From Bacteroidota bacterium (GTDB lineage: Bacteria; Bacteroidota; Bacteroidia; AKYH767-A; 2013-40CM-41-45), in assembly GCA_049363815.1 (NCBI GenBank), contig JBMQEM010000097.1, positions 1,925 to 65,924 of the forward strand: DNA of 64,000 bases. Direction: 5' to 3'. Under the pieces are notes generated by a model that ran no database searches, had not been told where the DNA came from, and saw only the letters and a list, made by a program, of their open reading frames with translations. The position numbers were made by a program, and so were the translations under genes. Below are positions 35,117 to 63,715 of this stretch, one piece after another. Numbering within the stretch: position 1 is the stretch's first letter; every line of letters starts with the position of its first letter.

Positions 35117-36460
35117 TCAGATCTTAACAATTGATCTTGTAACTTTTTTATTGTCGAAGATTAAGTTGATGGTGTATGTGCCACTTTCCCTGATCTTTTC
35201 ATTTTTATAGACATGAACATTTTTCCCTTTCGGAGCATCGAATGATTGTACGTCAACCACTTTTCCGGATTCATCACAGATCTGTATCCAGACCTTGCCT
35301 GACTTAGGTAAAAAATATGCTACGTCAAATGATTTGTCAAATGGTAATGGATTGATCTTTTCAATTGCCAGATTTGTTTCGTTTTGCATTTTAATTGCTG
35401 CAAGGGAATGCGAAATGAATTTTCCATTGATAAATGTTTGACGTAATCTGTAGTAAACAATTCCTGTTGTGGCCTTTGTTTTATCTGTATAAGAATATTC
35501 TTCTGTTTCTTTCATGTCCGGATTTACCGGTACATTGGCAACATTCATAAAATCAACACCATTTATTGAACGCTCGATTGTAAATGATTTTATTTTATCA
35601 TTCACAGAAGTTGACCAATGTATCTTGATCCCGCCCTCTTTTTCTTCTAGCATAAAATTTAAAAGTGATTCAGCCAGAGGAGCTGTATTTCCTGCTGTTC
35701 TCACTATAAGGTTGTCTAGAATTGCAATGTCTTTTCCGTCACCATTTATACCTTTTGCTATTGTAACTTTACCTGCATTCTTCCAGGAAAGGGGAGTGTT
35801 CGGCGAATGCTGATTTGACCACACAATTACACTGTTTACAAAGATCTCAGCTTTTCCTTTCGATGGATTGTAAATAAAGCGATAGTTCCTGAAGTTCATG
35901 TCAAAAGGAATTTCATATTCAGTTTTTATTTTGAATGATTCAATTCCGCCTCGTTTATTTTCAAGTCTGTAAGCTATACTTATAAAACCATTCTCAAATC
36001 CAAAGTTAAATCCATTTTCCCGTGAAAAGAAAGAACCGCTTTTTTCATTTCTGCTATAGTCGATGCTGATATCAATTCCTTCCTGATTCCATAACTCTGT
36101 ACCTTCAATTTCAAGATCAATGTCTTTACCATTTGGTCCTGGTGATAAACCACCCGTAGATGATCTTCCTCCTGGCATTGAGTGAGCTTCTTTACTAACA
36201 GAGATGGCATCAGGACCTAATGTTGCTGTTGTTACAGGATCTTTCTCCCAAGTAAATTCTGTTAATATATCTCCATTCCCTAAAGTGGCTCCGCTTCCTT
36301 CGCCTCCGGTTGCAGTTGCTCTGGTCTTGCTGACATTGTTAACATTCAGATAGACCATTATACCTGCTGTAATTGTAAGCATAAATGAAACACCACCGGC
36401 CACAAGAAGTAGTCTTGCCCTGAGTTTGTTTTTTTGTTTATGCCGTTGTCTGTTTTTCAT
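35117..36460 (-). CDS. Secreted protein with ConA/LamG-like domain, Ig-like domain and type-A T9SS CTD
   Basis: Basic N region plus hydrophobic stretch; beta-rich middle; W.TS..D....F.IERS..G..F domain; degenerate CTD (INPLPF...GTY.....KVTRSIVKI). Confidence 0.65.
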   Translation of the reverse strand: MKNRQRHKQKNKLRARLLLVAGGVSFMLTITAGIMVYLNVNNVSKTRATATGGEGSGATLGNGDILTEFTWEKDPVTTATLGPDAISVSKEAHSMPGGRSSTGGLSPGPNGKDIDLEIEGTELWNQEGIDISIDYSRNEKSGSFFSRENGFNFGFENGFISIAYRLENKRGGIESFKIKTEYEIPFDMNFRNYRFIYNPSKGKAEIFVNSVIVWSNQHSPNTPLSWKNAGKVTIAKGINGDGKDIAILDNLIVRTAGNTAPLAESLLNFMLEEKEGGIKIHWSTSVNDKIKSFTIERSINGVDFMNVANVPVNPDMKETEEYSYTDKTKATTGIVYYRLRQTFINGKFISHSLAAIKMQNETNLAIEKINPLPFDKSFDVAYFLPKSGKVWIQICDESGKVVDVQSFDAPKGKNVHVYKNEKIRESGTYTINLIFDNKKVTRSIVKI

Positions 36461-36478
36461 TGTGTCGGATCTTGAATG

Positions 36479-39400
36479 TTAGTTTTTAATCACCTTTTTC
36501 GTGATTCGCTCATTTGCACTCTCAATTATTAAAATATATGTTCCTGCCTCAAGGGCATCAAGATTTGTAATTTCAATTTTATTTTCACCAGGATCTGACT
36601 GATAATCTTTCTGGAATTTTGTTTTTCCATCACTACTGATCAATTGTACTGTTGTCTTCTGACTGGATCCTGAACTTAAATTTATTCTCATTTCATTTCT
36701 GAAAGGATTCGGAGAGACAGAATTTATTGAAAGATTTTTTGAAGTGCCTGATGGCATTACTCTGGCTATCTTAGAATAGATAAATGACCCATCTGGTGCG
36801 ATCTGTTTCAATCTATAGTACGATTCCGTACCTGTATATGAAATGTCGTCATAGGTATAATCTCGTATCTTGCTGTCAAATGAAGCTCTTATCTCATCAA
36901 TTGGATTAAAGTTAATTCCATCACCACTTCTTTCTACAATGAATTTTTCAATTCCTTGCTCTGATTGAATATGCCAGTCAACGGATACCATATCGTCGAC
37001 CAACTTTGCACTTAGTTCAATTGAAGCCACAGCAACAGATGCTATCGTCCAGTCCTGATATAGTACAGTATTATTGATAGTGATGGTTCCCTTTGATTGT
37101 CTTGTTCCTTGCGCACTTGCAGGAGTAATGTTCCAGCCTGTACCTGTCCATTGGATAATATTCAATTCTCCATCTGACATTGGTGAGCCAAGTGTGTTTT
37201 CTGTACCTAAATATGTAAGCGTGATATTTGCTTTTACTCCCGGACCTGTGAAAGACCACCATCGGTCAACAACATGCTCTGATGCGAATGGAACTCCGCC
37301 AGGGAAAGTCATGTCAAGTGCAGGGTAGGGTGTATTAGGAATATTTGTAGCACGGGTACTTACTGTAATCGTTCTTCCTAGTCCCGTCGTAACTGTAAAT
37401 TGAACAGGAATGAATTTATCTTCTGAGACCCCAAACGGAATTTCATGTACTCCTGTCGAGAGGTTTTGCCAACGGACCTGACTGTTGTTGATAGGCGTAG
37501 TGCCTTCACTAATAATAAAACCTTTACTTCTTTTTATCGCCGTCGCCTGACCGTTTTCTAATGTAATTGTTTTCGCATTTAATTTTAAACCACCTGATTG
37601 AAGGTCAAGTCTTGTCCTTACGATCACATTGTCACCGGAAAGTGCGGCTCTTGCATTACTTGCAGACTGAAGATTGATTTTCAGGATTCCATATTTCAAA
37701 GATTCGTTGTTACTTGAAGTTGATAACCCTGTTACTGAAATATTTTCTGATCCGGAGTATTCTACGATACTATATGGATGCAATTCATAACTTAAATTTC
37801 CTGTCAGAACAATTGCTCCATCGTTCGATAAGGCACAGAACCCATTCGGATTACAAGTTGAAATAGTTCCTCCTGAATCAACAACCAGTTTTGAAAAACC
37901 GTATTGCTGATTAGATTTTATTTGCCCTTTATTCAGTGCCAATGTTGCATTGTTTTTTACCTGCAGCATATTTATACCGGACTGATCATTTGATGAAAGT
38001 AAGAATGTGCTATTGTTTACCAATACCTTGCTTCCTGGTTCTATTTTCTGAATCAGATTTTCAATGTTAGAAGTACTCCCTGTTCTTGAATAGGCCTGGA
38101 ATCTAGGTGAACAATAACTAATTGTACCGAAGGAATTTGCAGTTCCTGTGCTGGTTCTGGTGATCTTACCTGTTCCTGAAAAACTGACAGATGAACCAGC
38201 AAGATTTAATTTATTACTGACCGTTGTGTATTGACTGTTATTATCCAGGTTTATGATTCCTCCGGATTGGGAAAATGCACCTTTTACCGTCAATGAAATA
38301 ATATCTGAAGTAGCCGATGTCTGATTGTTATGATAAATCAATTCGCCACCGCTTTGATTGAATTCTTTCCATACCTCAACTGAACCAGAACCCTGATTGT
38401 TTTTGATTGACAAAATTCCACCGGTGACCTTCATGCTGTCAATTGAAGCTGTTAATGCACCATTGTTTTTTGAAAGCGATAATGACCCGCCATTCATTTT
38501 TAAACTTTTCTTTACAGTCAATTGAATGTTATGCGAAGCGATCAAAGCTCCGTAGTTCAAACTATTTGTACATCCGTTAATTTCGAAATTACCGTTGATA
38601 GTGATCTCTTCATTTCCGGAAGAAGCAGAACTGGTCACCTCTGCACTTTGGATACCGTTCACGATAAAATCCCCGCCGATATTCATATTTAAGGTGAGGT
38701 TATTTTGTGTGCCCGAGATACTTGAAAGTGAGGTGCCACGGAATTTATCGTTTGCATTTTGAAAGTTGATCTTGAAATTCCTTGTCACATTGAAATTTCC
38801 CGTTGCACCGCCTGTATGACAAGCTGTTTGCCCCATGAATATTCCACCATTAAGATTCAGATCACCGATAGTCGCAGTAAAGGAACCGGAGTTCAATGTT
38901 GCAATGTTGTATAGAATCCGCGTATCTCCTGAATTCTGAGTATAGCTTCCTGTAATAGTTAAAGTAGCGTTGCCATTACTAACGTTCGGAATTCCTGTGT
39001 TATTAATGATCTTGACATTTCCTGAATTGGAAAAATTTCCGGTTACCTGTACGTTAATATTTCCATTGCCATCATTCAGTCCATAAAATACTCCACCATT
39101 GTTGGTGATATTTGTACACGATAAGTTAAATGAAGAAGCATGAGTTCCATTATGTCCGTAGAAAACAGAATTTGCATTCTTCAGCACTATATTTCCTATT
39201 GTTGTATTTGATATGGTTCCTGATTTATCAAGTGTCACCCAGCCCTGATCTATGGTAAGTGTACCAAGGATCCTGTGATTCTCAAATTGATTATTCTGAT
39301 TCCATTCTACTATTGAATTATTTCCTCCCGGTGAATTGATCTCGAGATTTCCGAAATTGCCTGTGACCTTTTCTCCAAGAGGAGTAGTGTAGTTGTACCA

Positions 39401-39919
39401 GTTTTTTATGATCAGATTACTTCCTGCTTCAAAATTCTCAACACAACTTGTAAATAAAGTTGCTTCTGCAGAAGTGTTGATGGAAGGATCCCAGATAAAA
39501 GTCCCGCCTGAACTTATCTTGAAAGAACGACCGATCGAACCAACGGTGATCATTCCTTTGTTCATATTCATACTTCCGCTGATCGTAATGTTACCACCAA
39601 TAGCAATTCTGATGTTCTGGCCCAATGTCAATTGACCTGTTGGAAACACAGTAAGATTCTGACACGCTGCATTAGAAGGAATTGTTACTGATGTTGAATT
39701 TTGAATCGTAACATTATCTCCTGATCCCGGTACTCCGGCAGGATTCCAGATTGCAGGATTGCTCCAGGCACCGGAACCGATAGATATTTTTGATCCTGCA
39801 AATACTTCTGCAGGAAGGAGGGAAGTGAGTAAGAATATACAGACTAATATTTTCTGTAAGTTTTTAGACAATTTCTCTGAAATTCGTCCAAAGTGCGTAT
39901 GTATTAATGCTTTTTCCAT
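36479..39919 (-). CDS. Large T9SS type-A cargo (G8-like N-terminus, Gly/Asn-rich beta-helix/solenoid)
   Basis: GSGAWSNPAIWNPAGVPGSGDNVTI; repeated L.I.G.F...GG motifs; CTD VSPNPF...GTYIL....KKVIKN. Confidence 0.8.
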   Translation of the reverse strand: MEKALIHTHFGRISEKLSKNLQKILVCIFLLTSLLPAEVFAGSKISIGSGAWSNPAIWNPAGVPGSGDNVTIQNSTSVTIPSNAACQNLTVFPTGQLTLGQNIRIAIGGNITISGSMNMNKGMITVGSIGRSFKISSGGTFIWDPSINTSAEATLFTSCVENFEAGSNLIIKNWYNYTTPLGEKVTGNFGNLEINSPGGNNSIVEWNQNNQFENHRILGTLTIDQGWVTLDKSGTISNTTIGNIVLKNANSVFYGHNGTHASSFNLSCTNITNNGGVFYGLNDGNGNINVQVTGNFSNSGNVKIINNTGIPNVSNGNATLTITGSYTQNSGDTRILYNIATLNSGSFTATIGDLNLNGGIFMGQTACHTGGATGNFNVTRNFKINFQNANDKFRGTSLSSISGTQNNLTLNMNIGGDFIVNGIQSAEVTSSASSGNEEITINGNFEINGCTNSLNYGALIASHNIQLTVKKSLKMNGGSLSLSKNNGALTASIDSMKVTGGILSIKNNQGSGSVEVWKEFNQSGGELIYHNNQTSATSDIISLTVKGAFSQSGGIINLDNNSQYTTVSNKLNLAGSSVSFSGTGKITRTSTGTANSFGTISYCSPRFQAYSRTGSTSNIENLIQKIEPGSKVLVNNSTFLLSSNDQSGINMLQVKNNATLALNKGQIKSNQQYGFSKLVVDSGGTISTCNPNGFCALSNDGAIVLTGNLSYELHPYSIVEYSGSENISVTGLSTSSNNESLKYGILKINLQSASNARAALSGDNVIVRTRLDLQSGGLKLNAKTITLENGQATAIKRSKGFIISEGTTPINNSQVRWQNLSTGVHEIPFGVSEDKFIPVQFTVTTGLGRTITVSTRATNIPNTPYPALDMTFPGGVPFASEHVVDRWWSFTGPGVKANITLTYLGTENTLGSPMSDGELNIIQWTGTGWNITPASAQGTRQSKGTITINNTVLYQDWTIASVAVASIELSAKLVDDMVSVDWHIQSEQGIEKFIVERSGDGINFNPIDEIRASFDSKIRDYTYDDISYTGTESYYRLKQIAPDGSFIYSKIARVMPSGTSKNLSINSVSPNPFRNEMRINLSSGSSQKTTVQLISSDGKTKFQKDYQSDPGENKIEITNLDALEAGTYILIIESANERITKKVIKN

Positions 39920-39928
39920 GGTTTCTGT

Positions 39929-40237
39929 TTATTGAGCATTAACAACTTTCCTCTCACGAATGAGAATTGCGTGTTCGCTATTGATCTTTTGTTGAATTAT
40001 AACCGGATTTTCCAGGCTCGTTTCATTCGTAAATTCCTGGTCAGAAACCTTTACAACCTCTATCGGTTCGTTGGCTCGTGCCTGTGAACTGGAAGGATTA
40101 GAAAAATTCATTATAACAAGCCCCAGAGCTGTCATTGATAATAATCCTGTACTGATCAACAGCACTGCTTTCATTGATATCCGTAGCTTTATTCGCGACT
40201 TCAATCCCGGTTTCTGCTTGTTCTTTGCTGGTTTCAC
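39929..40237 (-). CDS. Small hypothetical exported or membrane-anchored protein
   Basis: Basic N region, hydrophobic segment and ..SQARA site; 9 nt from the downstream gene. Confidence 0.65.
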   Translation of the reverse strand: MKPAKNKQKPGLKSRIKLRISMKAVLLISTGLLSMTALGLVIMNFSNPSSSQARANEPIEVVKVSDQEFTNETSLENPVIIQQKINSEHAILIRERKVVNAQ

Positions 40238-40411
40238 TTTTGATATATTTTTGGTTATATCGATTTACGATTTTACCTACCAAAAGTCATTTGCTAGTAG
40301 ATGGAGTTATTACAACTGTAAGAAAATGGAACTTTAAAGTATAATATGTTAAAAGAAGAATGAAAAAAGGTGTGTGAAGTTTGAAGAACAAAGTGTGTGG
40401 AGAATAAGCAT

Positions 40412-40443
40412 AAAAAAACGGAACTGAGCGAGCTCAATTCCGT
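40412..40443 (-). terminator. Intrinsic terminator after the sigma54 activator
   Basis: Minus strand acggaattgagc-tc-gctcagttccgt followed by T7, about 25 nt past the stop. Confidence 0.8.
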
Positions 40444-40468
40444 GGGTAGTTTCCTTAATCGTTTATCT

Positions 40469-41656
40469 TTATGAATTCACGAAGACCAGGTCTTCGGGAA
40501 GAATGGTATTGTTTTCAGACATGATCGCAGCTCTTTCGATGACCGCTTTTAATTCCCTGATATTACCGGGCCAGTTATATTCCAAAAGGAATTTTGTTGC
40601 CTCTTTGCTCAACTGGATGTTTGGCATTCTGTTTTCTTTGCAGAAATCTGCAAGGAAATTTTTTGAAAGCAGGACAACATCATCGCCTCTTTCCAAAAGA
40701 GTAGGTAAGTGGATCAGGAATCCTTGCAGACGATAGAATAGATCTTCTCTGAATCTTCCTTCTTTAACTTCTTGTACCAGGTTTTTATTTGTTGCAGCGA
40801 TTACGCGGACATCCAGTTTAATTGACTTATTACTTCCGATGCGGGTGACTTCTTTTTCCTGAAGTACTCTCAGGAGTTTTGTCTGCATCATCATATCCAT
40901 TTCACCGATCTCATCAAGAAAAATAGTTCCCTCGTTAGCCTCTTCAAATTTTCCTATCCTTCGGTCACGTGCATCTGTAAAGGCACCTTTCTCATGCCCG
41001 AACAATTCACTTTCAATAAGGTCTTCAGGAATGGCTCCCATATTAACTGTAACAAATGGCTTTTTTGCTCTTTGTGAATTATAATGGATTGCCCTTGATA
41101 CCAGTTCTTTTCCAGTTCCGCTTTGTCCGGTTACCAAAACCATGATATTGCTCTTCTCAACTTTCTGGATCAATCGAAGTACTTTTAATACCGGACTGCT
41201 ATTACCTAAAATGTTATTGTATTTATTACGGTCGATGACGATTTCTTTTAAAGCATCATTCTCCTGTTTCAGATATACGGTTTTACAAAGTGTCTTTACG
41301 GAATTTTCGAGATTTACTAAGGCATTATCATTCTTTATAATATAATCAGAAGCACCTTTTCTGTACGTGTCAATCACTACATCGATCTTTTCCTGACCGG
41401 AAACCATAACGCACTGAATATTGTCGTTATAATTTTTGATCTTTTCCATCAGTTCAATTCCATTCATTCCGGGAAGCATATAATCGATCGAAACGATATC
41501 GGGGTTCAGGTGTAAATTGCTTAAACAATCCTGAGGTGACATGAAATGTGTTACTTCGCAATTATCGAGTTTTTCCAAGGTCTTCTTGATCAAACTTCCC
41601 AGGAAGTGATCATCCTCTACTATAAATACTTTTATAAGTCCCATTGTTTTAAACAC
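40469..41656 (-). CDS. Sigma54-dependent response regulator (REC + AAA+), no C-terminal HTH
   Basis: REC (EDD, IDYMLP), Walker A GQSGTGKE, ESELFGHEKGAFTDA, Walker B FLDEIG, FREDLFYRL, WPGNIREL; stops at ILPEDLVFVNS. Probable ATG at 41644. Confidence 0.92.
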   Translation of the reverse strand: MFKTMGLIKVFIVEDDHFLGSLIKKTLEKLDNCEVTHFMSPQDCLSNLHLNPDIVSIDYMLPGMNGIELMEKIKNYNDNIQCVMVSGQEKIDVVIDTYRKGASDYIIKNDNALVNLENSVKTLCKTVYLKQENDALKEIVIDRNKYNNILGNSSPVLKVLRLIQKVEKSNIMVLVTGQSGTGKELVSRAIHYNSQRAKKPFVTVNMGAIPEDLIESELFGHEKGAFTDARDRRIGKFEEANEGTIFLDEIGEMDMMMQTKLLRVLQEKEVTRIGSNKSIKLDVRVIAATNKNLVQEVKEGRFREDLFYRLQGFLIHLPTLLERGDDVVLLSKNFLADFCKENRMPNIQLSKEATKFLLEYNWPGNIRELKAVIERAAIMSENNTILPEDLVFVNS

Positions 41657-41757: not shown

Positions 41758-42909
41758 ATGAAAAGCAGGTTGATTTTAACAATTATCGTGATTTTCCTTG
41801 CTACACCTCTGTGGATGAGGATAGGATGGGAATTTTCGCCTAAACGAAAGCTAAACCTGCTCATCGTCGATAAGACGGTACTGAACTCCAATAGTTTCAA
41901 ACACCGCTCGATAAACTGGATCCTGGATTACGAAAAATACATCAAACCTGACGGTTCTTTCTACGATATCAACAACGACTATTTTGGTTTTTTCCCAAAA
42001 GAAGATGAAAGGTATCAGATTCATGATTTTGAAAAACTTGATGAACCCGAAGTGGATAGTATTTCTAAAGTATACAATCTTGCCTATTTCGCCGATACCT
42101 ACGGAGTCCTTGGAAATGAATGGTATTCGCACAGAGATATTAATGATAATTCAGAAAGTATTTATGGCGGATTAACAGAGAAGGATCTGCTCCTCATGAC
42201 AAAAATGAAGAGTAAAAATAAACCGGTCATTGCTGAATTCAATACCATTGGTTATCCGACACCGGTTGATATGCGGCGGCAGTTTGAAAAATTATGGGGC
42301 ATAGAATGGACAGGATGGATGGCAAGACATATTGCATCACTTGATACTCTAAATAATCCTGACCTTCCTAAATGGATAGTAAGGGCTTATAAAAAGGAGC
42401 ATAACGGTGTCTGGAATTTCAAGAAAGATGGAATGCTCTTCATCCATGAAACCGGCAAGGTGCTGGTGCTGGAAATGGGCAAAGAGTTAAATGACGCCAT
42501 CCCGAAGATCTATACGGATAAAGTGAATCAGGAAGCTTTTGATGTACCTGCAGTGATGATCTATCCGTACTGGATCGATATCATGGTAAATAAAAATGAT
42601 ACCAATAATGTCATTTCAAAATATGTACTGGGAACTAATCCTGCCGGAGAAGCTTTGCTCTCTGCAAATGGAATCCCAAAGATCTTTCCTGCGATCATTC
42701 ACAGAAATAAAGATTTTCAATTCTATTATTTCTGCGGTGACTTTGCCGATAATCCAACAAAGTTCCGTTTCGCTAAACTGTCAGGAATTACGACTCTGAA
42801 GTTTTTAATGTATAATGCAGTTGATGTGACAGATAGAAACAGATTTTTCTGGGAGTTTTACCTTCCGATGATGAAAAAGATCTTAAAGAAAAGTTATACT
42901 TCGATTTAA
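41758..42909 (+). CDS. Hypothetical membrane-anchored periplasmic protein (DKTV / ADTYGV motifs)
   Basis: 383-aa ORF with an N-terminal hydrophobic anchor; I cannot assign a family with confidence. Confidence 0.75.
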   Translation: MKSRLILTIIVIFLATPLWMRIGWEFSPKRKLNLLIVDKTVLNSNSFKHRSINWILDYEKYIKPDGSFYDINNDYFGFFPKEDERYQIHDFEKLDEPEVDSISKVYNLAYFADTYGVLGNEWYSHRDINDNSESIYGGLTEKDLLLMTKMKSKNKPVIAEFNTIGYPTPVDMRRQFEKLWGIEWTGWMARHIASLDTLNNPDLPKWIVRAYKKEHNGVWNFKKDGMLFIHETGKVLVLEMGKELNDAIPKIYTDKVNQEAFDVPAVMIYPYWIDIMVNKNDTNNVISKYVLGTNPAGEALLSANGIPKIFPAIIHRNKDFQFYYFCGDFADNPTKFRFAKLSGITTLKFLMYNAVDVTDRNRFFWEFYLPMMKKILKKSYTSI

Positions 42910-42925
42910 AAAATGAGATAAAATA

Positions 42926-42970
42926 AAAAATGAAGAATGATCAGTAGTTCATTCTTCATTCTTCATTTTT
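42926..42970. repeat. Heptamer palindrome (AATGAAG / CTTCATT) between convergent genes
   Basis: aaaaatgaagaatga-tcagtagt-tcattcttcattcttcattttt. Confidence 0.75.
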
Positions 42971-42983
42971 AATTTTGTATTTC

Positions 42984-44420
42984 CTAGCTCTTTTTAGCTG
43001 CTCTGGTAAATCCCTGTCTTTTCATTTCACCCCAGTTTTTAACTCCCGTCATAAGGTCAAGATTTCCTCTGATAGCATAATAAACGGTGAGTGGGTGAAT
43101 AAATAATGGTTCGATCAAAGCTGTACCAAGCAACCTGAGGATATCGCGTTTCTTTTTGTACTGATGGAAACTCAACTCTTCAAAGAGGATTGCTGCTGTG
43201 GAGTACATGATCGCAAAGGCATAGATCAATAAAAATAGTACGACAAACAATTCAACGTTCAGGATTCCCAAAAAAGCCATCATGATGAGGTAAAGGAATG
43301 CAGTCGTTTCTACGATAGGAGCCATGTATTCAAACAATAACCAGAATGGCATACTTACCATTCCAAGAAATTTGTACTTCGGATTAAAGATGAGCTTTTT
43401 ATGGATCCACAACGTCTCTGCTGTTCCTCTTGTCCAGCGATTTCTCTGCTTACTCAGGATCTTAAAATTGTTCGGTGCTTCTGTCCAGCAAAGGGGATCG
43501 GGAAGATACACTACACGATACTTTTCTTTCCGCTCTTCCATGTACCTCCGCATCCTGATCACCAGCTCCATATCTTCGCCAACTGTATTATGATTGTAAC
43601 CACCTGAATCAATTGCAATCTTCTTATCGAACATTCCAAACGCTCCTGAGATCAGAATCAGTCCATTTAACCTGCTCCAGGCCATCCGTCCCAGTAAAAA
43701 TGCACGGATATATTCAAGAACCTGTATGCGTGGGATAATTTCAGTAGGCAAATTTACTTTGGTGATCTTGCCTTCATTCACCTCACATGAGTTGGCGATA
43801 CGAACGACACCACCTACAGCAATTACTCTGTCGGTTTCTGTCTGCTCCATAAATGGTTTGACCATTTTAAGCAGCGATTCATACTCTAGAATACAGTCTA
43901 CGTCAATTGCGGCAAAGATTCCGTATCTGGAAATATTTATCCCGGAATTCAGTGCATCCGCTTTTCCGCCATTGACTTTGTCAACAACTGTCAGTTTACT
44001 TAATGATGGAATAGTGGATTTATAAACAGCCCGAATCGGTTTTGATGCTATCTTTTCTTCAAAGGCATATGGTACAGGTTCCAGATCATATGCCTTGATC
44101 ATCAATTCAAGTGTATTGTCCTTGGAGCCGTCATTGACGATGATCACTTCGAAATTCACATAGTGAATATTCAGTAATGACCTCACATTTTCAACAATGG
44201 TTTTTGATTCATTGTATGCCGGTGCAATAATGGAAATAGATGGAGCAGAAGGCGCAGCAAGAATATCACGATAGTCTATAAAGCTGTTCCGGCGCATGTA
44301 ATTGATAATATCAAATGCGGAAACAGTTGACAGGATAAAGTAGGTGCCAAACAAAATACAGCTGTAGACCAAAATAAAATGATCTGCAAACTTTGTAAAA
44401 TAATAGAAAAACAAACCCAT
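42984..44420 (-). CDS. Processive GT2 polysaccharide synthase (PgaC/IcaA-like topology)
   Basis: One N-terminal TM, PAYNE, VNDGSKD, KVNGGKADALN, DVD, SGAFGMF, VGED, QRNRW (QxxRW), then about 3 TMs. Confidence 0.9.
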   Translation of the reverse strand: MGLFFYYFTKFADHFILVYSCILFGTYFILSTVSAFDIINYMRRNSFIDYRDILAAPSAPSISIIAPAYNESKTIVENVRSLLNIHYVNFEVIIVNDGSKDNTLELMIKAYDLEPVPYAFEEKIASKPIRAVYKSTIPSLSKLTVVDKVNGGKADALNSGINISRYGIFAAIDVDCILEYESLLKMVKPFMEQTETDRVIAVGGVVRIANSCEVNEGKITKVNLPTEIIPRIQVLEYIRAFLLGRMAWSRLNGLILISGAFGMFDKKIAIDSGGYNHNTVGEDMELVIRMRRYMEERKEKYRVVYLPDPLCWTEAPNNFKILSKQRNRWTRGTAETLWIHKKLIFNPKYKFLGMVSMPFWLLFEYMAPIVETTAFLYLIMMAFLGILNVELFVVLFLLIYAFAIMYSTAAILFEELSFHQYKKKRDILRLLGTALIEPLFIHPLTVYYAIRGNLDLMTGVKNWGEMKRQGFTRAAKKS

Positions 44421-44423
44421 AGT

Positions 44424-45578
44424 TTATAACCTCCTGTCACGAGCGTGACGAATCATTAATTGTAGTTGCGGTCCGGATTGATTGAATATGGATTCAATCA
44501 CCTGTTCACCGTTTGTATGTATGGAAAGAAGGGAGCGGACTGCCTGGATGGAAACCAGGTAATCTTCAACCGGCTGACGAATGATCTTCTCCAGTACAGG
44601 AATTGACTTCGAGCTTCCAATTATTTCAAGCGTTTTTAATATTTCAGTCTTTAGTGTGAGATTTTCCAATGGGTAGATCTCCAGCAATGATTCTTCACCG
44701 TCTGTTGCACTTAACTCCCTTAATGCACGGATCACTGCTAATTTCAGACGCATATCCTGGCTCTTCAGCAGAACCAGCAATGTTTTAATTGATTCCCTTT
44801 GTCTGAAACGCCCTATCATTTGTATGCAGAAAATGACAACGTCTTTGTTAGTTGAATTCAACCAGAAACTAAAATCAGGGATCATCTTTTCCGGCATTTT
44901 GGTCAGCATGTTGTAGATGTTTGCTGAATCCCAGTCAGACAAGTGTTCTGTTTCCTTTGCAAGAAAGGCAAGCGGATCGGTGTCGCTTAATTTCATAAGC
45001 GCAATCCTTGTTTCCATCCTCAGGATCTCATTCTTGCTGTTCAGAAATCCGCTGATTTCATGATAACCGGATCTTACATTCATGATCGCCAGTTCTTTCA
45101 TGCCTTTGGCAATGATGTACCAGCGCTTGCTTTTTAATTTGACCATTGAATCTTTTTCAAACCCAAGGTATCTGTAAATTTCTTCCAATCGTTCTGCAGT
45201 TTCACCGGTGAAATTTTCATGCAGATGTATTATCTCATCAAGCAGGGTAGTGCGGTTGAAAGGGATTTTCAGATCCGCCTTGTCAACCATCGACAAAACT
45301 TTCTTCTCTGTCAATCCTTCATCAAATAACAACTCACGAAAAACCGGCTGATACTTTTTTAGAAGTTCTGTCTTTTTGTTCAGCCTTTTTGTCTTGTAAA
45401 TTCTGCTTCCCATTATCACACCCAAAAGAATGAGAATAATGATCATGAATAGAATGGTTACACCGATCAGGATCCTGATATGTACAGGAAAACTATAGAT
45501 AGATCGTCCTACCTCATCTACAGAATACTGCAGATCAGAAAAATTCATTTGAAGAAATATGGACGATAGAAATTGCAA
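44424..45578 (-). CDS. Single-TM protein with cytoplasmic HEAT/ARM-like repeats
   Basis: TM helix at about residues 33-57, then helical repeats (LLVLLKSQDMRLKLAVIRALREL, LKTLEIIGSSKSIPVL); 3 nt from the GT2 start. Confidence 0.8.
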   Translation of the reverse strand: MQFLSSIFLQMNFSDLQYSVDEVGRSIYSFPVHIRILIGVTILFMIIILILLGVIMGSRIYKTKRLNKKTELLKKYQPVFRELLFDEGLTEKKVLSMVDKADLKIPFNRTTLLDEIIHLHENFTGETAERLEEIYRYLGFEKDSMVKLKSKRWYIIAKGMKELAIMNVRSGYHEISGFLNSKNEILRMETRIALMKLSDTDPLAFLAKETEHLSDWDSANIYNMLTKMPEKMIPDFSFWLNSTNKDVVIFCIQMIGRFRQRESIKTLLVLLKSQDMRLKLAVIRALRELSATDGEESLLEIYPLENLTLKTEILKTLEIIGSSKSIPVLEKIIRQPVEDYLVSIQAVRSLLSIHTNGEQVIESIFNQSGPQLQLMIRHARDRRL

Positions 45579-45585
45579 ATTGATA

Positions 45586-46947
45586 TTAGTTGTTTAATTG
45601 TTTATTCAGTTCTTCGATCTGATTTTCAATAGAGATTCTTCTGGCATTCAGGAAGGACTTAAGCCCCGGAATAAAATTTCCCGGATCCAGCGGATCACCA
45701 ACAGTCGTATTTATGTTCGTGTCAAAATCGGTGTTTGAATACATTTTGTTGACATCGGCATAAACTGAGACCCGGATCCTTAAGCTTATACTGTCTATTT
45801 TCTGATTAATTACTTCTTCGCTGAAATGTTTCCGGAGAAGTTCATTCATGATTGCGAGATATCGTTTCTGAATGATCTTATTGTCGCCTAATGTTTTTTC
45901 CAGCAATGGGCGTGGCTGATGGTATGGAACTGAATCCGGCACAAGGATATTTAGGTTCTCCAGTTGACGCAAAGGCATAACCGGATTCCATGCAGCAAAA
46001 CTGTAGTTTCCATCTAAGGAGATCCATTGCCATTTAGAAGTTACTGTATCATGATAGAGAAAGAAGTTGTGCGGATAGAACATATTATACGCATCGATAT
46101 TGCCTATAATATTGTTGACAGCCCATGCTCTCAGGCATTTGTCAAGATTGAAAGCTGATTCCAGTTTTTTTGTATACTCTTCATTTGTGGCAACTGTATC
46201 GTTGATCAACCTGATGAATTTCACAAGATCTGTCCAGTCGTTCTTTTTGGTATTATTCTTCAGCACATATCGATTCCAGTATTTCATCGGTTCGTTTCCA
46301 AAATATACAAAGTTGGCTTGAGGTTCACCTTGAAATAAATTTCCTGCCGAACTATTGAACCGGGTTTCCAAAAACACCTTGTCAATACTTTCATTCACTA
46401 AATAGAGTCCCCAGTATTTATCATTCAGATAGACCTTAGCATAAGTAGCCCGGGGTGCCGGTAATCCTTCACTATTCAGAATGTCGAGGTACAGTTTCTC
46501 GCGCATCATGGAAGGATCTTTGAAATTATTGGTAAGGTTCAATTCTTCTATTCCGTGAAAATCCTGACCCTTGATGAACTTATTGAATTTTAATCTGAAT
46601 GGTTTTTTCTTTCCGGGATAAAAATCGTATGATGATTCACCTTTAAAACGCACACCGGTAGAGTAGAATTTTTTATTATCAATGATCACATTGGCCTGAA
46701 GATAATTATTCAACTCCAGTGAGTCCATCATCTTTTTGTTATAAGTGAGTGAATCCCAGAAACTGCATTGAGTAAAGTTGATTCGAATGACATGAATAGA
46801 ATCTTTCTCGAAAAAACTTTTTCCATAGTCTTTCTTCGAAGTTTTTTTCGTGCCCTCTTTTGCCTGAGCAAATACATCTGCCTGACTAAAAAGTGTCAGG
46901 AGCAGGGTGACTAGTATATATTTTCTTAGCATTTCTATGTGGATCAA
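45586..46947 (-). CDS. CotH-family secreted kinase
   Basis: Signal peptide (..VFA/Q), GVRFKGESS, KKPFRLKF, LNL.NNFKDPSMMRE, YWGLYL..ESID, NIDAY..HN, W.WISLDGNYSF. Probable ATG at 46932. Confidence 0.88.
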   Translation of the reverse strand: MIHIEMLRKYILVTLLLTLFSQADVFAQAKEGTKKTSKKDYGKSFFEKDSIHVIRINFTQCSFWDSLTYNKKMMDSLELNNYLQANVIIDNKKFYSTGVRFKGESSYDFYPGKKKPFRLKFNKFIKGQDFHGIEELNLTNNFKDPSMMREKLYLDILNSEGLPAPRATYAKVYLNDKYWGLYLVNESIDKVFLETRFNSSAGNLFQGEPQANFVYFGNEPMKYWNRYVLKNNTKKNDWTDLVKFIRLINDTVATNEEYTKKLESAFNLDKCLRAWAVNNIIGNIDAYNMFYPHNFFLYHDTVTSKWQWISLDGNYSFAAWNPVMPLRQLENLNILVPDSVPYHQPRPLLEKTLGDNKIIQKRYLAIMNELLRKHFSEEVINQKIDSISLRIRVSVYADVNKMYSNTDFDTNINTTVGDPLDPGNFIPGLKSFLNARRISIENQIEELNKQLNN

Positions 46948-48290
46948 AAAACTGTTTTAAGCGTGATACCTGTTATGACTCTTTTGGTATAAATTGTAGT
47001 TGCATCTTCTGCGTCACCACTAAGTCCTGTAGTTCTTAATGGCTCTCTTGATAAACCGCAATCAATTTTTATTACCCATCTTCCGAATGCACTTTTCTGT
47101 GCTTCAATTCCGGCAGAGTAGGAGCGGGTTTGAATTCCCTGCTCAAGTTTGGCAGATTCGTCCGGTGATTTACCACGGCTCAGTTTGATCCCAAGGTAAT
47201 TATCACCATCGCCGAAATATTTCCGGGCTGCAACAATCATCGTCAGTGATGTGTTTTTCAGAGAAGTTGATTGAAATGTCGAATCTGTTTTGGGATTGAT
47301 ATAAGCCCTGAAACTAAACCAGTAATCTTTGTAATAATTTCCTAAACTGGTTGTATAGAAAGATGAACTTGCTTTAAATGTCTGGTAACGGATCCCTGCT
47401 GAATATTCAAATCCGGCAGGAAGTTTAAAATAAAATTCCGCGCCATACTTTTCTTTCGGGAAAATGTCGTCGTATGCATAACCGACAAAAAGATTGGCAT
47501 AGATCTTCTTGGTAAAGTGCGCATAACTTTCTACTTCATACTGAAAGCCTCGCTTTTGAAATTTATTTGCCGTGTTGATCCTCATTGTAAGAGAACCAAA
47601 TGTAAAGTTCCTTCCAACCTGGGCTGAAAGAAATTCCTGTGGGTCTTTTCCGAATGAAAATTCATCGACAGAATAACTGGTCTGGAAATTATTGTTCAGA
47701 CGCTTGCCTTCAAGACTGTTCATCAATTGCAAGGCCTCCTTGTTTCCGGGATTAAAATCCAGGATTCTTCTCAATGTCAGGGCGGCATTTCCTTTATCAT
47801 CCAGTTTCATCTGGAGCTTTGCCTTTTTCAGAAGCAACTCCTCCGAGTTAGGATAATAGCTTAAAGCAATCTTTAAATAGTCATTAGCTACCTCATAATT
47901 CTCACTCCAGAATTCTACATCAAAAAGTGCACTCAAAGCCTCCTGATCGCTTTCTTTCTCGATCAATACACGGCTCAATTCCGTTCTTGCCATATCATAG
48001 TTTTTCTGCCACGTATAAGTCCTGGCTAAAAACGTACGTACATCATAATAATTTGGTTTTTTCTCAAGTATCTTCTGGCAAATTCTTCTGGCCTGAGTGT
48101 AGTTGTCATTGAAACTTAACTCTCGTGCTTTTTTGAAAAGCGCATCAAGATCTGTGGTATCAGTAACAATGACCAATGTGTCTGATGCCTTAGTCTGGGC
48201 TGAGCTCGTAAGGCTGAAACCGGACAGGGTCAAAATCAAAAAAATCAAAAAATGGTTGACTCTGAGCTGCATTTTCATTTTTGAATTCAA
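46944..48290 (-). CDS. TPR + YaiO-family outer-membrane beta-barrel
   Basis: Signal peptide (..SSA/Q), 3-4 TPR helix pairs, then an amphipathic beta-barrel (FQYEVESY, IFPKEKYGAEFY, SAGIRY) ending in Phe. Confidence 0.8.
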   Translation of the reverse strand: MNSKMKMQLRVNHFLIFLILTLSGFSLTSSAQTKASDTLVIVTDTTDLDALFKKARELSFNDNYTQARRICQKILEKKPNYYDVRTFLARTYTWQKNYDMARTELSRVLIEKESDQEALSALFDVEFWSENYEVANDYLKIALSYYPNSEELLLKKAKLQMKLDDKGNAALTLRRILDFNPGNKEALQLMNSLEGKRLNNNFQTSYSVDEFSFGKDPQEFLSAQVGRNFTFGSLTMRINTANKFQKRGFQYEVESYAHFTKKIYANLFVGYAYDDIFPKEKYGAEFYFKLPAGFEYSAGIRYQTFKASSSFYTTSLGNYYKDYWFSFRAYINPKTDSTFQSTSLKNTSLTMIVAARKYFGDGDNYLGIKLSRGKSPDESAKLEQGIQTRSYSAGIEAQKSAFGRWVIKIDCGLSREPLRTTGLSGDAEDATTIYTKRVITGITLKTVF

Positions 48291-48652
48291 TATGATTTCA
48301 TCAGAAGCCTCTTCACCCTGACGGAAAGTTCGTTCGGACTAAATGGTTTTGTGATGAAATCATCTGCTCCCAATTGAAATGCTTCCAATACAGTTTTTTC
48401 TAAACCAATTGATGAAACTATAATAATCGGAACTTTTATATTCAATTGTTTTCTTACCTGATGAACGATCTCCAGCCCGGTTAAATAGGGCATCATGATA
48501 TCGGTAATAATAATGTCGGGTCTCAACTTATCGATCTTTTCAATCGCCTCTTTTCCGTCCTTAGCAAGTATAACTTCATAGCCCTCTTTTTCAAGCTTGA
48601 ACTCTACCATTTTAAGGACCATTTCATCGTCTTCGCAAACTAAGACCTTCAT
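48287..48652 (-). CDS. Single-domain response regulator (REC only)
   Basis: CEDDE, IITDIMMP (phospho-Asp), FITKPF; 121 aa with no output domain. Confidence 0.93.
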   Translation of the reverse strand: MKVLVCEDDEMVLKMVEFKLEKEGYEVILAKDGKEAIEKIDKLRPDIIITDIMMPYLTGLEIVHQVRKQLNIKVPIIIVSSIGLEKTVLEAFQLGADDFITKPFSPNELSVRVKRLLMKSY

Positions 48653-48742: not shown

Positions 48743-51172
48743 CTATTTAAGAGTGGTTAATTCTGTTCGCAGTTGAGCATATGCCTGACTTGTTCTTGAC
48801 TCAATTTCTATGAGCAGTTCATCAACTGCAGGCTCTCTTAATTCTTTCTCATTCATCATTTCAACCTTGGTCAATGCATTCTGTATCTCAGACATTCCCA
48901 TATAACCAAATGAAGGCTTGATTCTGTGTGCCACCTTCCTGAATTCATCCCAGTTTTTATTTTTGAAATGACCATACATTTCTGTGATCGCTTCCGGTGT
49001 TTTATTCAGGAACATTTCTATCATCTCTATCACAAAACTTTCGTTTCCTTCTGCAATTTGTTTCAGATAACTGAGGTTGATCTTCGGTGCATTCAGGAAA
49101 TGATTGATCGATTCTTTTGAAGGAGTAACCGGTGAGGAATTTCCTATTGATGCTCCTGTATCGCTATTTTTATTTGATTGAGTTGAAAGTTTCACTCCCG
49201 CTGTTTTAGGTTCAAAATGAGTATTTTGAACTTGTTTCAACGAAGAATTTTCACTTTGGGTTAGGGCAATTATCTTTTTCTTTAAATCCAGAGGATCGAA
49301 AGGTTTGTTAATATGATCGTTCATTCCATGATCCTTGCATTTCTGCTTTTCAGATGCCGTAGCATGGGCTGTCATGGCCATAATGGGAACTGAACAGAAA
49401 GGTTCCGGTAAAGTAGTCCTGATCGTTTTTGAAGCAGTTAAACCTTCCATGACAGGCATTTGTATGTCCATCAGAATCAGGTCGTAATGACCATTTTTAG
49501 CCAGTTTTACTGCTTCTTCGCCATTGTCGGCAAAGTCGATCGTAGCCTGCCAGTCTGAAAATATCTTCCTGACTACCAATTGGTTAATCTTATTGTCTTC
49601 GGCGATAAGAATCCTCAGATGAGAGATGCTTGCATCACTTTCTTTCTGAACTTCGACCTTTCTGACTGATTCCAGAATAGGGTAGTCGATATGAAAAGAA
49701 AAAGTTGTGCCTGTTCCCGGTTTACTTTTAACTTGAATTTCACCGTTCTGAAGTTCAATGAGTTTTTTTACAATCGTAAGCCCAAGACCGGTTCCACCGA
49801 ATTTCCTTGTCGTTTCAGAACTTGCCTGAGTAAAACTGTCGAAAATGGTAGAGATACTTTTTTCCGGAATACCAATTCCTGAATCTCTTACTTCAAATTG
49901 AACGGTGACCTTATCATTTATTTTCTGGCCCGCCCTGGCAATTATTCTCACTTCACCTTTTTCCGTGAACTTGATAGCATTACTTATCAGATTATTGATG
50001 ATCTGTGAAAGTCGGGTAGGGTCACCGCTGATTGCAGCAGGTAGTTTTGGATCTACTTCCGATACCAGCTGAATTCCTTTCTCATCTGCTTTCGCCTGGA
50101 ATAATTCAATTGCATGTCTGACAGACTGATTCAGGTTGAATGGCACATTTTCAAAAGTCATCTTACCGGCTTCAATCTTTGAGAAGTCTAGAATATCATC
50201 AATGATCACCATCAGATTATCAGAACACATTTTTATTGAATTCAGATAACCGGATTGTTCTTCATTCAAATTAGTATTAAGTAAAATTCGTGTCAGACCA
50301 ATAATTCCATTCATTGGCGTGCGAATCTCATGACTCATATTTGCAAGGAAGTTTTCCTTGATCTTTGCTGTTTCTTCTGCAAGTTGCCTTGCATTTTCTA
50401 GCTGTTCCTGAATGCGCTTATGTGCAGTTACATCAGCTGCAATTCCGATCACACCTATAATGGCATTATCATTGTCGCGTATTGATGTATAAAAGATCTC
50501 GAAATATTTTTTCCCCCATTCAGCAACGATCTTCACTTCCTTTCCTTCAAGTGCCTGATGAAAATACTCCTGTTGAATAGGTATTTCTTTAGAGAAATTT
50601 GCCAGAGGCTGATTGATGAATTTTTCTTTATCAATCTTTAATTCTTCCAGTCCCTTTCCTTCAAATAGTGTGAACTCACTGTTTTTGTTCAATGCAAATA
50701 GGATGATAGGGGAATTGGCAACCACTGCTTTCAACTGATTTTGAGTTGTGCTTAGTTGTAATTCAAGCTCGCGCTGACGTGTCGCCTGTTCTTTCAGGTT
50801 AACCATGTACCGCACACTTTGTGCAATACCTTCACCTGTTAAAAGATCTTTCGGGATGTAATCATTCGCTCCGGTCTTCATTGCTTCAACAGCAATTTTC
50901 TCATCACCTTGACTGGTAACAATAATGATCGGAGACTGATTTCCGGAACTGCGGATCTCTTTCAAAAGATCAATACCTGTTCCACCCGGTAAGTTATAAT
51001 CAAGAAATATACAGTCGTACTCCTGATCCTTTGTAGCAGCTTTCCCACTTTCATGGTCCTCTGCAAAATATAAATCGTGATTAATGCTTGCACTTTTCAA
51101 TGCCTTCTTAATGATCAACCGATCCAACTCGTCGTCCTCGACAACAAGTATCTGAAATTTTCTATCTGCCAT
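48743..51172 (-). CDS. Cytoplasmic hybrid histidine kinase REC-PAS-HisKA-HATPase-REC-Hpt
   Basis: REC1 (FLDYNLP), PAS-like domain, NMSHEIRTPMNG, NLISNAIKFT, DSGIGI, GGTGLGL, REC2 (LMDIQMP), Hpt (VAHRIKPS); no TM segment. Confidence 0.93.
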   Translation of the reverse strand: MADRKFQILVVEDDELDRLIIKKALKSASINHDLYFAEDHESGKAATKDQEYDCIFLDYNLPGGTGIDLLKEIRSSGNQSPIIIVTSQGDEKIAVEAMKTGANDYIPKDLLTGEGIAQSVRYMVNLKEQATRQRELELQLSTTQNQLKAVVANSPIILFALNKNSEFTLFEGKGLEELKIDKEKFINQPLANFSKEIPIQQEYFHQALEGKEVKIVAEWGKKYFEIFYTSIRDNDNAIIGVIGIAADVTAHKRIQEQLENARQLAEETAKIKENFLANMSHEIRTPMNGIIGLTRILLNTNLNEEQSGYLNSIKMCSDNLMVIIDDILDFSKIEAGKMTFENVPFNLNQSVRHAIELFQAKADEKGIQLVSEVDPKLPAAISGDPTRLSQIINNLISNAIKFTEKGEVRIIARAGQKINDKVTVQFEVRDSGIGIPEKSISTIFDSFTQASSETTRKFGGTGLGLTIVKKLIELQNGEIQVKSKPGTGTTFSFHIDYPILESVRKVEVQKESDASISHLRILIAEDNKINQLVVRKIFSDWQATIDFADNGEEAVKLAKNGHYDLILMDIQMPVMEGLTASKTIRTTLPEPFCSVPIMAMTAHATASEKQKCKDHGMNDHINKPFDPLDLKKKIIALTQSENSSLKQVQNTHFEPKTAGVKLSTQSNKNSDTGASIGNSSPVTPSKESINHFLNAPKINLSYLKQIAEGNESFVIEMIEMFLNKTPEAITEMYGHFKNKNWDEFRKVAHRIKPSFGYMGMSEIQNALTKVEMMNEKELREPAVDELLIEIESRTSQAYAQLRTELTTLK

Positions 51173-63699: not shown

Positions 63700-63715
63700 T
63701 GCAGAAAGTGTGCCA
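63700..63715 (-). promoter_or_regulatory. Sigma54 (-24/-12) promoter
   Basis: Minus strand TGGCACACTTTCTGCA has exact GG-N10-GC spacing and matches TGGCAC-N5-TTGCA at all but one position; 24 nt upstream of the ATG. Confidence 0.7.

Follow-up and report, generated by a model that had tools for sequence, protein, structure and literature searches.

The stretch of Bacteroidota DNA analyzed here (assembly GCA_049363815.1, contig JBMQEM010000097.1, positions 1,925 to 65,924; the whole 64,000 nt are called the window in the following) harbors a gene for a sigma-54 activator that comprises a receiver (REC) and an AAA+ ATPase domain and ends without the C-terminal helix-turn-helix (HTH) domain. On sequence grounds, this protein and its orthologues, here named family A, are an independently derived family of group-5 bacterial enhancer-binding proteins (bEBPs) in a phylum in which none has been characterized. 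We consider it fairly probable that the protein is a functional two-component response regulator, which suffered an ancestral loss of the HTH and would activate sigma-54 promoters from solution in an enhancer-independent manner. The gene and the predicted protein domains are as follows.

40469..41644 (-): gene of the HTH-less REC-AAA+ sigma-54 activator (family A), 391 aa, stop codon at 40469-40471
41330..41629 (-): receiver domain, residues 6-105 (Response_reg, PF00072), with D11, the phospho-acceptor D54, S82 and K104
41228..41323 (-): long helix, residues 108-139, formed by receiver helix 5 and an NtrC1/NtrC4-type linker (AlphaFold2 model and fold matches)
40712..41212 (-): sigma-54 interaction AAA+ domain, residues 145-311, with Walker A 173-180, GAFTDA 220-225 (nt 40970-40987), Walker B 244-245 and R299
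40487..40693 (-): AAA+ lid domain, residues 318-386 (AAA_lid_14), with sensor II (WPGNIREL...IER), from Pfam, alignment and AlphaFold2 model
40443..40418 (-): intrinsic terminator, 11-bp stem followed by T7, 25 nt past the activator stop

Domain architecture and conserved end point

The open reading frame covers 40469..41656 when a GTG is taken as start. The ATG at 41644 is the likelier start, because the resulting 391-aa product matches a 391-aa database protein with 100% identity over the full length. The Sigma54_activat profile (PF00158) was matched with E = 1.9e-71 over positions 1-167 of 168, and an alignment of 27 sequences, which takes in HTH-bearing outgroups, revealed invariant residues in all functional parts of the protein: D11, D54 and K104 in the receiver, G173-K179 in Walker A, D244 and E245 in Walker B, G220, F222, T223 and A225 in the L1 loop, R299 in the arginine finger region as well as R363 and R371 in sensor II. 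The chain ends 26 residues beyond the WPGNIREL motif, and HTH_8 was not matched in the Pfam search. The alignments to the NtrC, AtoC and FlgR profiles stop at approximately position 377 of 430-463, and the scores stay below the cut-offs of the NCBIfam models TIGR01818 (371 versus 558.6 bits), NF008469 (367 versus 714 bits) and NF049963 (352 versus 750 bits), the last of which describes FlgR and belongs to the top three profile matches. Moreover, a tblastn search with the tails of the 19 closest HTH-bearing relatives against positions 39800-40620 gave no indication of an HTH remnant 3' of the gene (best E = 0.14). An earlier note made from the sequence alone had stated that the receiver, Walker A/B, GAFTDA, arginine finger and sensor II elements are intact, that the protein stops right after the AAA+ domain, that a strong terminator follows about 25 nt past the stop and that no HTH remnant exists in other frames; these statements have been verified by the profile, alignment, terminator and tblastn analyses.

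The AlphaFold2 model (pLDDT 89.1) displays a complete lid, a chain that stops just past the sensor-II helix, and a 32-residue helix (108-139) bridging the receiver and the ATPase. In the PDB, the fold is matched best by two fragments that comprise receiver and ATPase, one of NtrC1 in the inactive state (1NY5) and one of NtrC4 (3DZD), with 385-389 aligned columns; NtrX, LuxO and 4L4U are also among the best matches, with near full-length alignment. Since these matches span essentially the whole length, the natural protein can be regarded as the equivalent of the engineered 'RC' fragments of classical activators. NtrC1 and NtrC4 of Aquifex aeolicus (1NY5, 3DZD, 4L4U) are the best matches in sequence and in fold, and they share the same long receiver-to-ATPase helix. 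However, they possess a C-terminal HTH and bind enhancers, whereas the family A protein has no HTH.

The comparison of orthologues, which covered 120 protein clusters and about 50 genomes for the end point and the GAFTDA loop, reveals an evolved and ancient truncation that is not strain-specific. The 120 best protein clusters are 77-100% identical to the window protein; their length is 388-391 aa except in a few cases in which the N-terminus was called further upstream, and PF02954 was found in none of them. In whole-genome searches, almost every sampled genome of the genus and the family contained an orthologue. Orthologues also occur in three further families of the order, where the identity decreases to 59% and the frame still closes at the same place. 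Every extracted orthologue has the GAFTDA loop and a chain that stops 25-26 residues past WPGN(I/V)REL, and the last residues are conserved as ...EDL(V/I/T)F. In three orthologous loci, the next gene starts only 4-8 nt past the activator stop. Outside the order, which consists of uncultured freshwater and wastewater Bacteroidota, no family A orthologue was found in a 300-genome sample of the phylum; the best matches there are 43-53% identical and belong to frames of approximately 450 aa. The suspicion of the earlier note that the truncation evolved is therefore borne out by the end point, which is identical in all orthologues. That the gene is instead a truncated pseudogene, the product of a nonsense mutation or an assembly artefact is hardly conceivable. 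The short length of the protein is the only point that speaks for such an origin, while the same end point at 59-100% identity in many independent assemblies, the conserved C-terminal residues, and the terminator or next gene directly after the stop argue against it, so that this candidate explanation was ruled out.

Some of the extracted loci show peculiarities. In locus L060, a long array of GTGAGTA/TTTTCAC-type short repeats, forming an extended inverted repeat, is situated just past the activator stop in place of a simple terminator. In four loci on contigs of long-read metagenome-assembled genomes (L054, L056, L071 and L073), the neighboring kinase, GT2 and HEAT genes align piecewise, in L073 also the receiver part of the activator, which probably reflects frameshift errors of long reads rather than real decay.

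Origin and spread of tail-less activators in Bacteroidia

In a maximum-likelihood tree built on the shared receiver-ATPase region, the tail-less family A is monophyletic (SH-aLRT 99) and sister to a group of HTH-bearing Bacteroidia regulators of about 450 aa with a GAFTGA loop, here named family H (SH-aLRT 100). Because the sister family bears the HTH, the tree indicates a secondary loss of this domain in the ancestor of the order-level lineage. The family H proteins, which are uncharacterized, are 47-53% identical to family A. They keep a tail of 60-70 residues with the HTH (..GKSTIYRM..) and the canonical GAFTGA, whereas family A has no tail and carries GAFTDA. Several family H genes are located beside HK809-like kinase, REC or Hpt genes with 25-44% identity to the hybrid histidine kinase encoded at 48743-51172 of the window, which fits a module that was inherited together with the activator.

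The same comparison bears on the L1 loop, through which sigma-54 is contacted and whose GAFTDA sequence is invariant in all orthologues. The replacement of the second glycine (G5) by aspartate is, by analogy, not a defect, because GAFTDA is the functional form of FlgR in Campylobacter and other epsilonproteobacteria (PMC3162934). The nearest relatives of family A carry GAFTGA, hence its FlgR-like loop is of convergent origin. Proteins combining GAFTDA with an HTH exist as well (Poribacteria loci), and therefore the loss of the tail and the replacement of G5 are linked only as a tendency.

A second group of tail-less proteins emerged from the weaker matches, which were found in almost every relative. 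These receiver-ATPases of about 385 aa, here named family B, form a separate clade (support 100) with a GAFTSA, GSFTSA or GSFTGA loop and a WTGNIREL motif. At E <= 1e-125, family B was detected in 226 of 251 genomes of the class, corresponding to 137 of 152 genera, among them Hymenobacter cavernae, H. crusticola and many Flavobacterium species including F. psychrophilum. The proteins of these species all have 387 aa and lack HTH_8; they are annotated as "sigma-54-dependent Fis family transcriptional regulator" or "NtrX". Roughly three quarters of the 150 best family B matches are open frames shorter than about 440 aa. The HTH was absent from all 16 short proteins inspected, while a Fis-type HTH was kept in all seven long ones (453-467 aa), and about a quarter of the family B orthologues still carry HTH_8. 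Like family A, family B thus has the REC-AAA+ architecture, is mostly HTH-less and has G5 replaced, mostly by S. It differs in its genes, which are orphans with no kinase alongside, and in its near-universal occurrence in the class; family A, in contrast, is restricted to a single order. Since families A and B are separate clades, both wholly or mostly tail-less, the sequence data indicate at least two losses of the DNA-binding domain among the receiver-type sigma-54 activators of Bacteroidia, in which the tail-less state is common. This class-wide pattern of HTH loss is the most useful by-product of the analysis.

The genome of the window organism is equipped for sigma-54-dependent transcription. 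As presupposed in the earlier note, rpoN is present and intact, encoding a protein of 490 aa with the activator-interacting, core-binding and DNA-binding domains. Searching the assembly with PF00158 revealed two true activators, the family A protein and a 414-aa AAA+-lid-HTH_8 protein, which has no N-terminal sensor and whose gene is situated between miaB and an LptE-like gene (lptE) on contig C189. A family B gene was not found in the assembly. In two relatives, family B is flanked by counterparts of two genes at contig borders of this assembly, namely the final gene of C81, truncated where the contig stops (25554), and the initial gene of C111; hence, a second HTH-less activator, for which 384-386 aa would be expected from the same genus, most probably falls in the gap between these contigs. 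The initial count of only two activators was therefore set aside, and the organism probably has three, two of them tail-less. Accordingly, the family A protein is not the sole sigma-54 switch of this cell. Among the genomes of the phylum sample, a sigma-54 activator of some type was present in all (301/301).

The receiver-plus-ATPase architecture without DNA-binding domain (R + C, no D) defines group 5 of the bEBPs (PMC7175178), and the family A protein, with its phospho-acceptor Asp in a PF00072 receiver (residues 6-105) and the conserved absence of a DNA-binding domain, fits this group as an independently derived member. The likeness to FlgR and CtcC proposed in the earlier note thus applies to the architecture. 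Like family A, FlgR of the Helicobacter pylori FlgS/FlgR system consists of a receiver and a sigma-54 AAA+ domain, its L1 loop reads GAFTDA with G5 replaced by D (PMC3162934), and it is phosphorylated by a cognate cytoplasmic kinase, as which a predicted cytoplasmic hybrid kinase is at hand for family A. However, family A represents a separate lineage that is closest to HTH-bearing Bacteroidia regulators, so the resemblance is convergent. Moreover, the window kinase is a hybrid REC-PAS-HK-REC-Hpt phosphorelay protein, flagellar genes are missing, and the activator is not alone in the cell. CtcC of the Chlamydia trachomatis CtcB/CtcC pair shares the R + C architecture as well; it is devoid of a DNA-binding domain, is active as an ATPase and regulates genes related to the envelope and to secretion (PMC7482065). 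It differs in belonging to another phylum, in having a simple kinase partner and in being the only bEBP of its genome.

These findings extend the known occurrence of such proteins. As R + C activators, only FlgR and CtcC are recorded in the searchable literature, while FleT is devoid of both R and D (PMC3162934; PMC7175178), and these three are the only sigma-54 activators without a DNA-binding domain named in reviews, all from host-associated or specialized bacteria with tiny regulator sets. In family A, the tail-less design has been maintained throughout an order of free-living Bacteroidota. Family B adds a second, independent and mostly tail-less family, which extends over most of the class and comprises proteins of Flavobacterium fish pathogens and model gliders. 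The statement that no HTH-less activator is characterized in Bacteroidota agrees with the searchable literature, in which none was found, but the rarity implied by it does not hold, given family B in 226 of the 251 genomes. A transcriptome study of F. psychrophilum counted three PF00158 proteins, which were neither assigned nor dissected (PMC9723704). If action from solution is true, the choice of sigma-54 promoters in Bacteroidia would be set by the promoters and the activator dosage, not by enhancers, and this would change how these three activators should be studied.

Probable partner kinase and proposed mechanism

The genes upstream of the activator comprise a probable cognate kinase and a polysaccharide-type block.

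48743..51172 (-): hybrid histidine kinase REC-PAS-HisKA-HATPase-REC-Hpt, probable cognate kinase (domain search, synteny)
48287..48652 (-): single-domain receiver (RgzB-like), 121 aa, second candidate acceptor of the Hpt domain, in the block between kinase and activator
42984..48290 (-): YaiO barrel/TPR - CotH - HEAT - GT2 polysaccharide-type block (domains, synteny)
41758-42909, strand opposite to the activator: gene of 383 aa between the polysaccharide-type block and the activator

The usual order in the orthologous loci is kinase, 121-aa receiver, YaiO/TPR, CotH, HEAT, GT2 (with the 383-aa gene in opposite orientation), activator and a trio of downstream genes. Eight loci (L055, L061, L090, L068-L070, L072 and, in part, L074) contain neither the polysaccharide block nor the small receiver, and their kinase gene stops roughly 5-165 nt upstream of the activator. 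Since kinase and activator adjoin where the block is absent, the synteny identifies them as a conserved core pair, and the block (41758-48652 region) as an insertion in part of the family. The position of the kinase gene, beside the activator and directly upstream of it in these eight loci, makes the hybrid Hpt kinase very likely the cognate kinase. The earlier note had proposed a global sigma-54 switch driven by the neighboring Hpt kinase; the partnership with the kinase is likely, but the global role is weakened by the other activators.

The mechanism proposed in the following is built on what is established for NtrC1/DctD-type and FlgR/CtcC-type activators. Phosphate from the cytoplasmic hybrid kinase (48743-51172) would be transferred via its Hpt domain to D54 of the activator. 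The phosphorylation would release an NtrC1-like lock between receiver and linker and permit the AAA+ domains to form a ring, whose GAFTDA loops may then contact region I of sigma-54 and open promoter complexes from solution without binding to an enhancer. Without a DNA-binding domain, the activator could not choose its promoters and would act on any sigma-54 promoter; hence, the specificity would be located in the promoters and in the activator concentration, and the activator would share whatever sigma-54 promoters exist with family B and the HTH-bearing activator.

A comparable layout is found in the RgzA/RgzB system of Flavobacterium johnsoniae. This system, which consists of an unorthodox kinase with an Hpt domain and a single-domain receiver, induces the transition of cells to aggregating 'zorbs', alters about 15% of the transcripts and controls aggregation and biofilm behavior; sigma-54 or an AAA+ protein is not mentioned in this preprint (bioRxiv 10.64898/2026.07.01.735801). 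Compared by layout, the window kinase and small receiver resemble this pair of Hpt kinase and adjacent single-domain receiver, with the difference that RgzA has a GAF input domain, while the window kinase has REC-PAS instead. If the proposed mechanism is true, it would provide a transcriptional output for hybrid Hpt kinases whose sole known partner is a single-domain receiver.

Promoters, the downstream operon and alternative readings

Several findings weigh against an enhancer-independent action of the family A protein from solution. Within ±10 kb of the activator, no conserved -24/-12 element (GG-N10-GC) was found in 25 orthologous loci. Genome-wide, exact TGGCA-N6-TTGC sites are barely enriched (20 versus 11 in the reversed control), and some relatives lack the -12 GC at the candidate promoters. 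No -24/-12 site exists within 300 nt of dnaK, grpE, clpB or groEL, which are sigma-54-driven in F. psychrophilum, and these chaperone genes were dropped as candidate targets. The Hpt domain has a second possible acceptor in the single-domain receiver at 48287-48652, and a mechanism with mixed rings is conceivable in view of the sensor-less, HTH-bearing activator in the same cell. The sigma-54 regulon of this lineage looks small.

The intergenic regions of the window contain no sigma-54 site next to the activator, the downstream operon, the 383-aa gene or the kinase. The downstream region and the one candidate promoter that had been named in the earlier note comprise the following features.

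35117..40237 (-): three downstream genes for a 102-aa protein (Arg/Lys-rich anchor), an 1146-aa protein with a type IX secretion system (T9SS) tail, and a 447-aa protein (Arg/Lys-rich anchor) (synteny)
40261..40321 (-): conserved promoter architecture with the palindrome TTACAGTTGTAA at 40310-40321 and a CGTAAAT box at 40263-40269
63701..63715 (-): candidate sigma-54 site TGGCACACTTTCTGC with one mismatch, 25 nt before the gene of a 100-aa Lys-rich secreted protein

The downstream trio, with a T9SS-tail protein of about 1100 aa, adjoins the activator in nearly all orthologous loci. Between the terminator and this operon, a 12-bp palindrome TTACA-N2-TGTAA (TCTTACA-N2-TGTAAG) is likewise conserved in nearly all loci, and a CGTA(A/G)A box lies downstream of it at a distance of exactly 40 nt, or of 51 nt in three loci. 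The same palindrome is present upstream of three other operons in the genome (C23:26063, C66:12080 and C115:15622), which encode a small anchored protein, a giant T9SS protein or a TonB-dependent-receptor-like protein. In F. psychrophilum, promoters for extracytoplasmic function (ECF) sigma factors upstream of T9SS genes are recognizable by a CGT box at -10 (motif SM6, PMC9723704). Because of the resemblance to SM6, the palindrome and the CGT box look like an ECF-type promoter with an upstream operator, not a sigma-54 promoter, and the operon is interpreted as ECF-driven. For the neighboring T9SS-cargo and polysaccharide genes, direct control by sigma-54 is improbable, and co-regulation through the same kinase or an ECF-type promoter is the likely mode.

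These features have a bearing on readings of the activator other than the one preferred here. It might be recruited by another DNA-binding protein, for example one that binds TTACA-N2-TGTAA, and thereby control the T9SS-cargo operon directly. The strict synteny of the activator with the cargo genes, the fixed distance of 40 (or 51) nt between palindrome and CGTA box and the recurrence of the palindrome before three other adhesin-type operons would suit such a recruitment. It is nevertheless very unlikely, since the T9SS operon has no GG-N10-GC element, the CGT box is suggestive of an ECF sigma factor, not of sigma-54, and we know of no AAA+ bEBP that acts on an ECF holoenzyme. Highly improbable, too, is a role as phosphate sink or negative modulator, in which the activator would compete with the single-domain receiver for the Hpt domain or cap the rings of other activators. 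The presence of one Hpt and two nearby acceptors and the lack of a sigma-54 promoter nearby are in line with this idea; however, all residues for ATPase activity and sigma-54 contact are strictly preserved in the family, whereas a pure sink would not maintain them, and some orthologous loci have no single-domain receiver at all.

A division of labor between two proteins also has to be considered. The HTH-less receiver-ATPase and the sensor-less, HTH-bearing activator on contig C189 complement each other in their domains, the former having REC-AAA+ but no HTH and the latter AAA+-HTH but no sensor, and they might assemble in mixed rings, in which one type of subunit would provide the signal input and the other the DNA targeting, as in FleQ/FleT or HrpR/HrpS. 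We regard such a split activator as rather unlikely. In its favor are the ubiquity of sigma-54 activators in the phylum sample, the at least two losses of the HTH among the receiver-type activators of Bacteroidia and the existence of hetero-oligomeric bEBPs such as FleT (PMC7175178). On the other hand, the identity between the two AAA+ domains amounts to no more than about 44%, FlgR and CtcC function without such a partner, and the miaB-linked activator gene is adjacent neither to the family A nor to the family B gene. In a still wider view, sigma-54 control in Bacteroidia would be built on receiver-ATPases that repeatedly shed their tail, family A in the order and family B in most of the class, beside one sensor-less HTH activator, via a mixed-ring split enhancer-binding protein or via one small, jointly gated regulon; the RgzA-like kinase would then reach transcription through the tail-less activator and polysaccharide synthesis through the small receiver. 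This combination is distinctly unlikely, but if true, the aggregation and surface programme would be coupled to sigma-54.

The site at 63701-63715, which the earlier note had taken for a sigma-54 promoter, did not withstand comparison and was dropped. Sites of this kind occur in the window at chance level (2 found versus 2.5 expected). The gene of the 100-aa Lys-rich protein is kept in only two of 19 genus relatives, and in both of them the orthologous sites read TGGCACATTTTCTGT, with the -12 GC lost.

Three of the 20 TGGCA-N6-TTGC sites in the genome are in proper upstream positions. The best candidate for a sigma-54 promoter in the genome is TGGCAGGATAATTGCC at C111:10585-10600 (-), 25 nt before a gene for a secreted thioredoxin-like protein. 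In a comparison of four genomes from three genera in all, two of the three relatives, one of the same genus and one of another, have retained the site amid diverged flanks, while the third has TTGT at -12. It is located about 5.5 kb from the family B gene in the relatives, and a thioredoxin-family gene belongs to the experimentally mapped sigma-54 regulon of F. psychrophilum (PMC9723704).

Two other sites are more difficult to interpret. TGGCAGAAATATTGCA at C128:4142-4157 (-) precedes a tandem array of genes for DUF1573-like secreted proteins. Upstream of this array (loci L168-L192), a TTCATnnTGCCTTCATAG motif followed by (A/T)CTTTTGGCA is conserved family-wide; the family-wide part comprises the -24 half TTTTGGCA and an upstream TTCAT..CTTCAT motif, while TTGC at -12 was found in about 10 of 25 genomes (about 40%). 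It is doubtful whether this represents a decaying sigma-54 promoter or another kind of site. The sequence TGGCACnGGCTTTGC lies inside a PstS-like coding sequence, where it forms the codons for GLGTGFA, and is matched exactly in 17 of 37 family genomes; in the window organism, TGGCACAGGCTTTGCT at C66:27238-27253 (-) occupies these codons at the 3' end of the PstS-like gene, about 100 nt before a TPR-protein gene. The case is suggestive but ambiguous between a promoter within the coding sequence and a codon coincidence, with ascertainment bias and codon effects being possible. Within the genus, 15-16 of 16 genomes agree at those synonymous positions that the motif requires, whereas variation occurs at the other synonymous positions.

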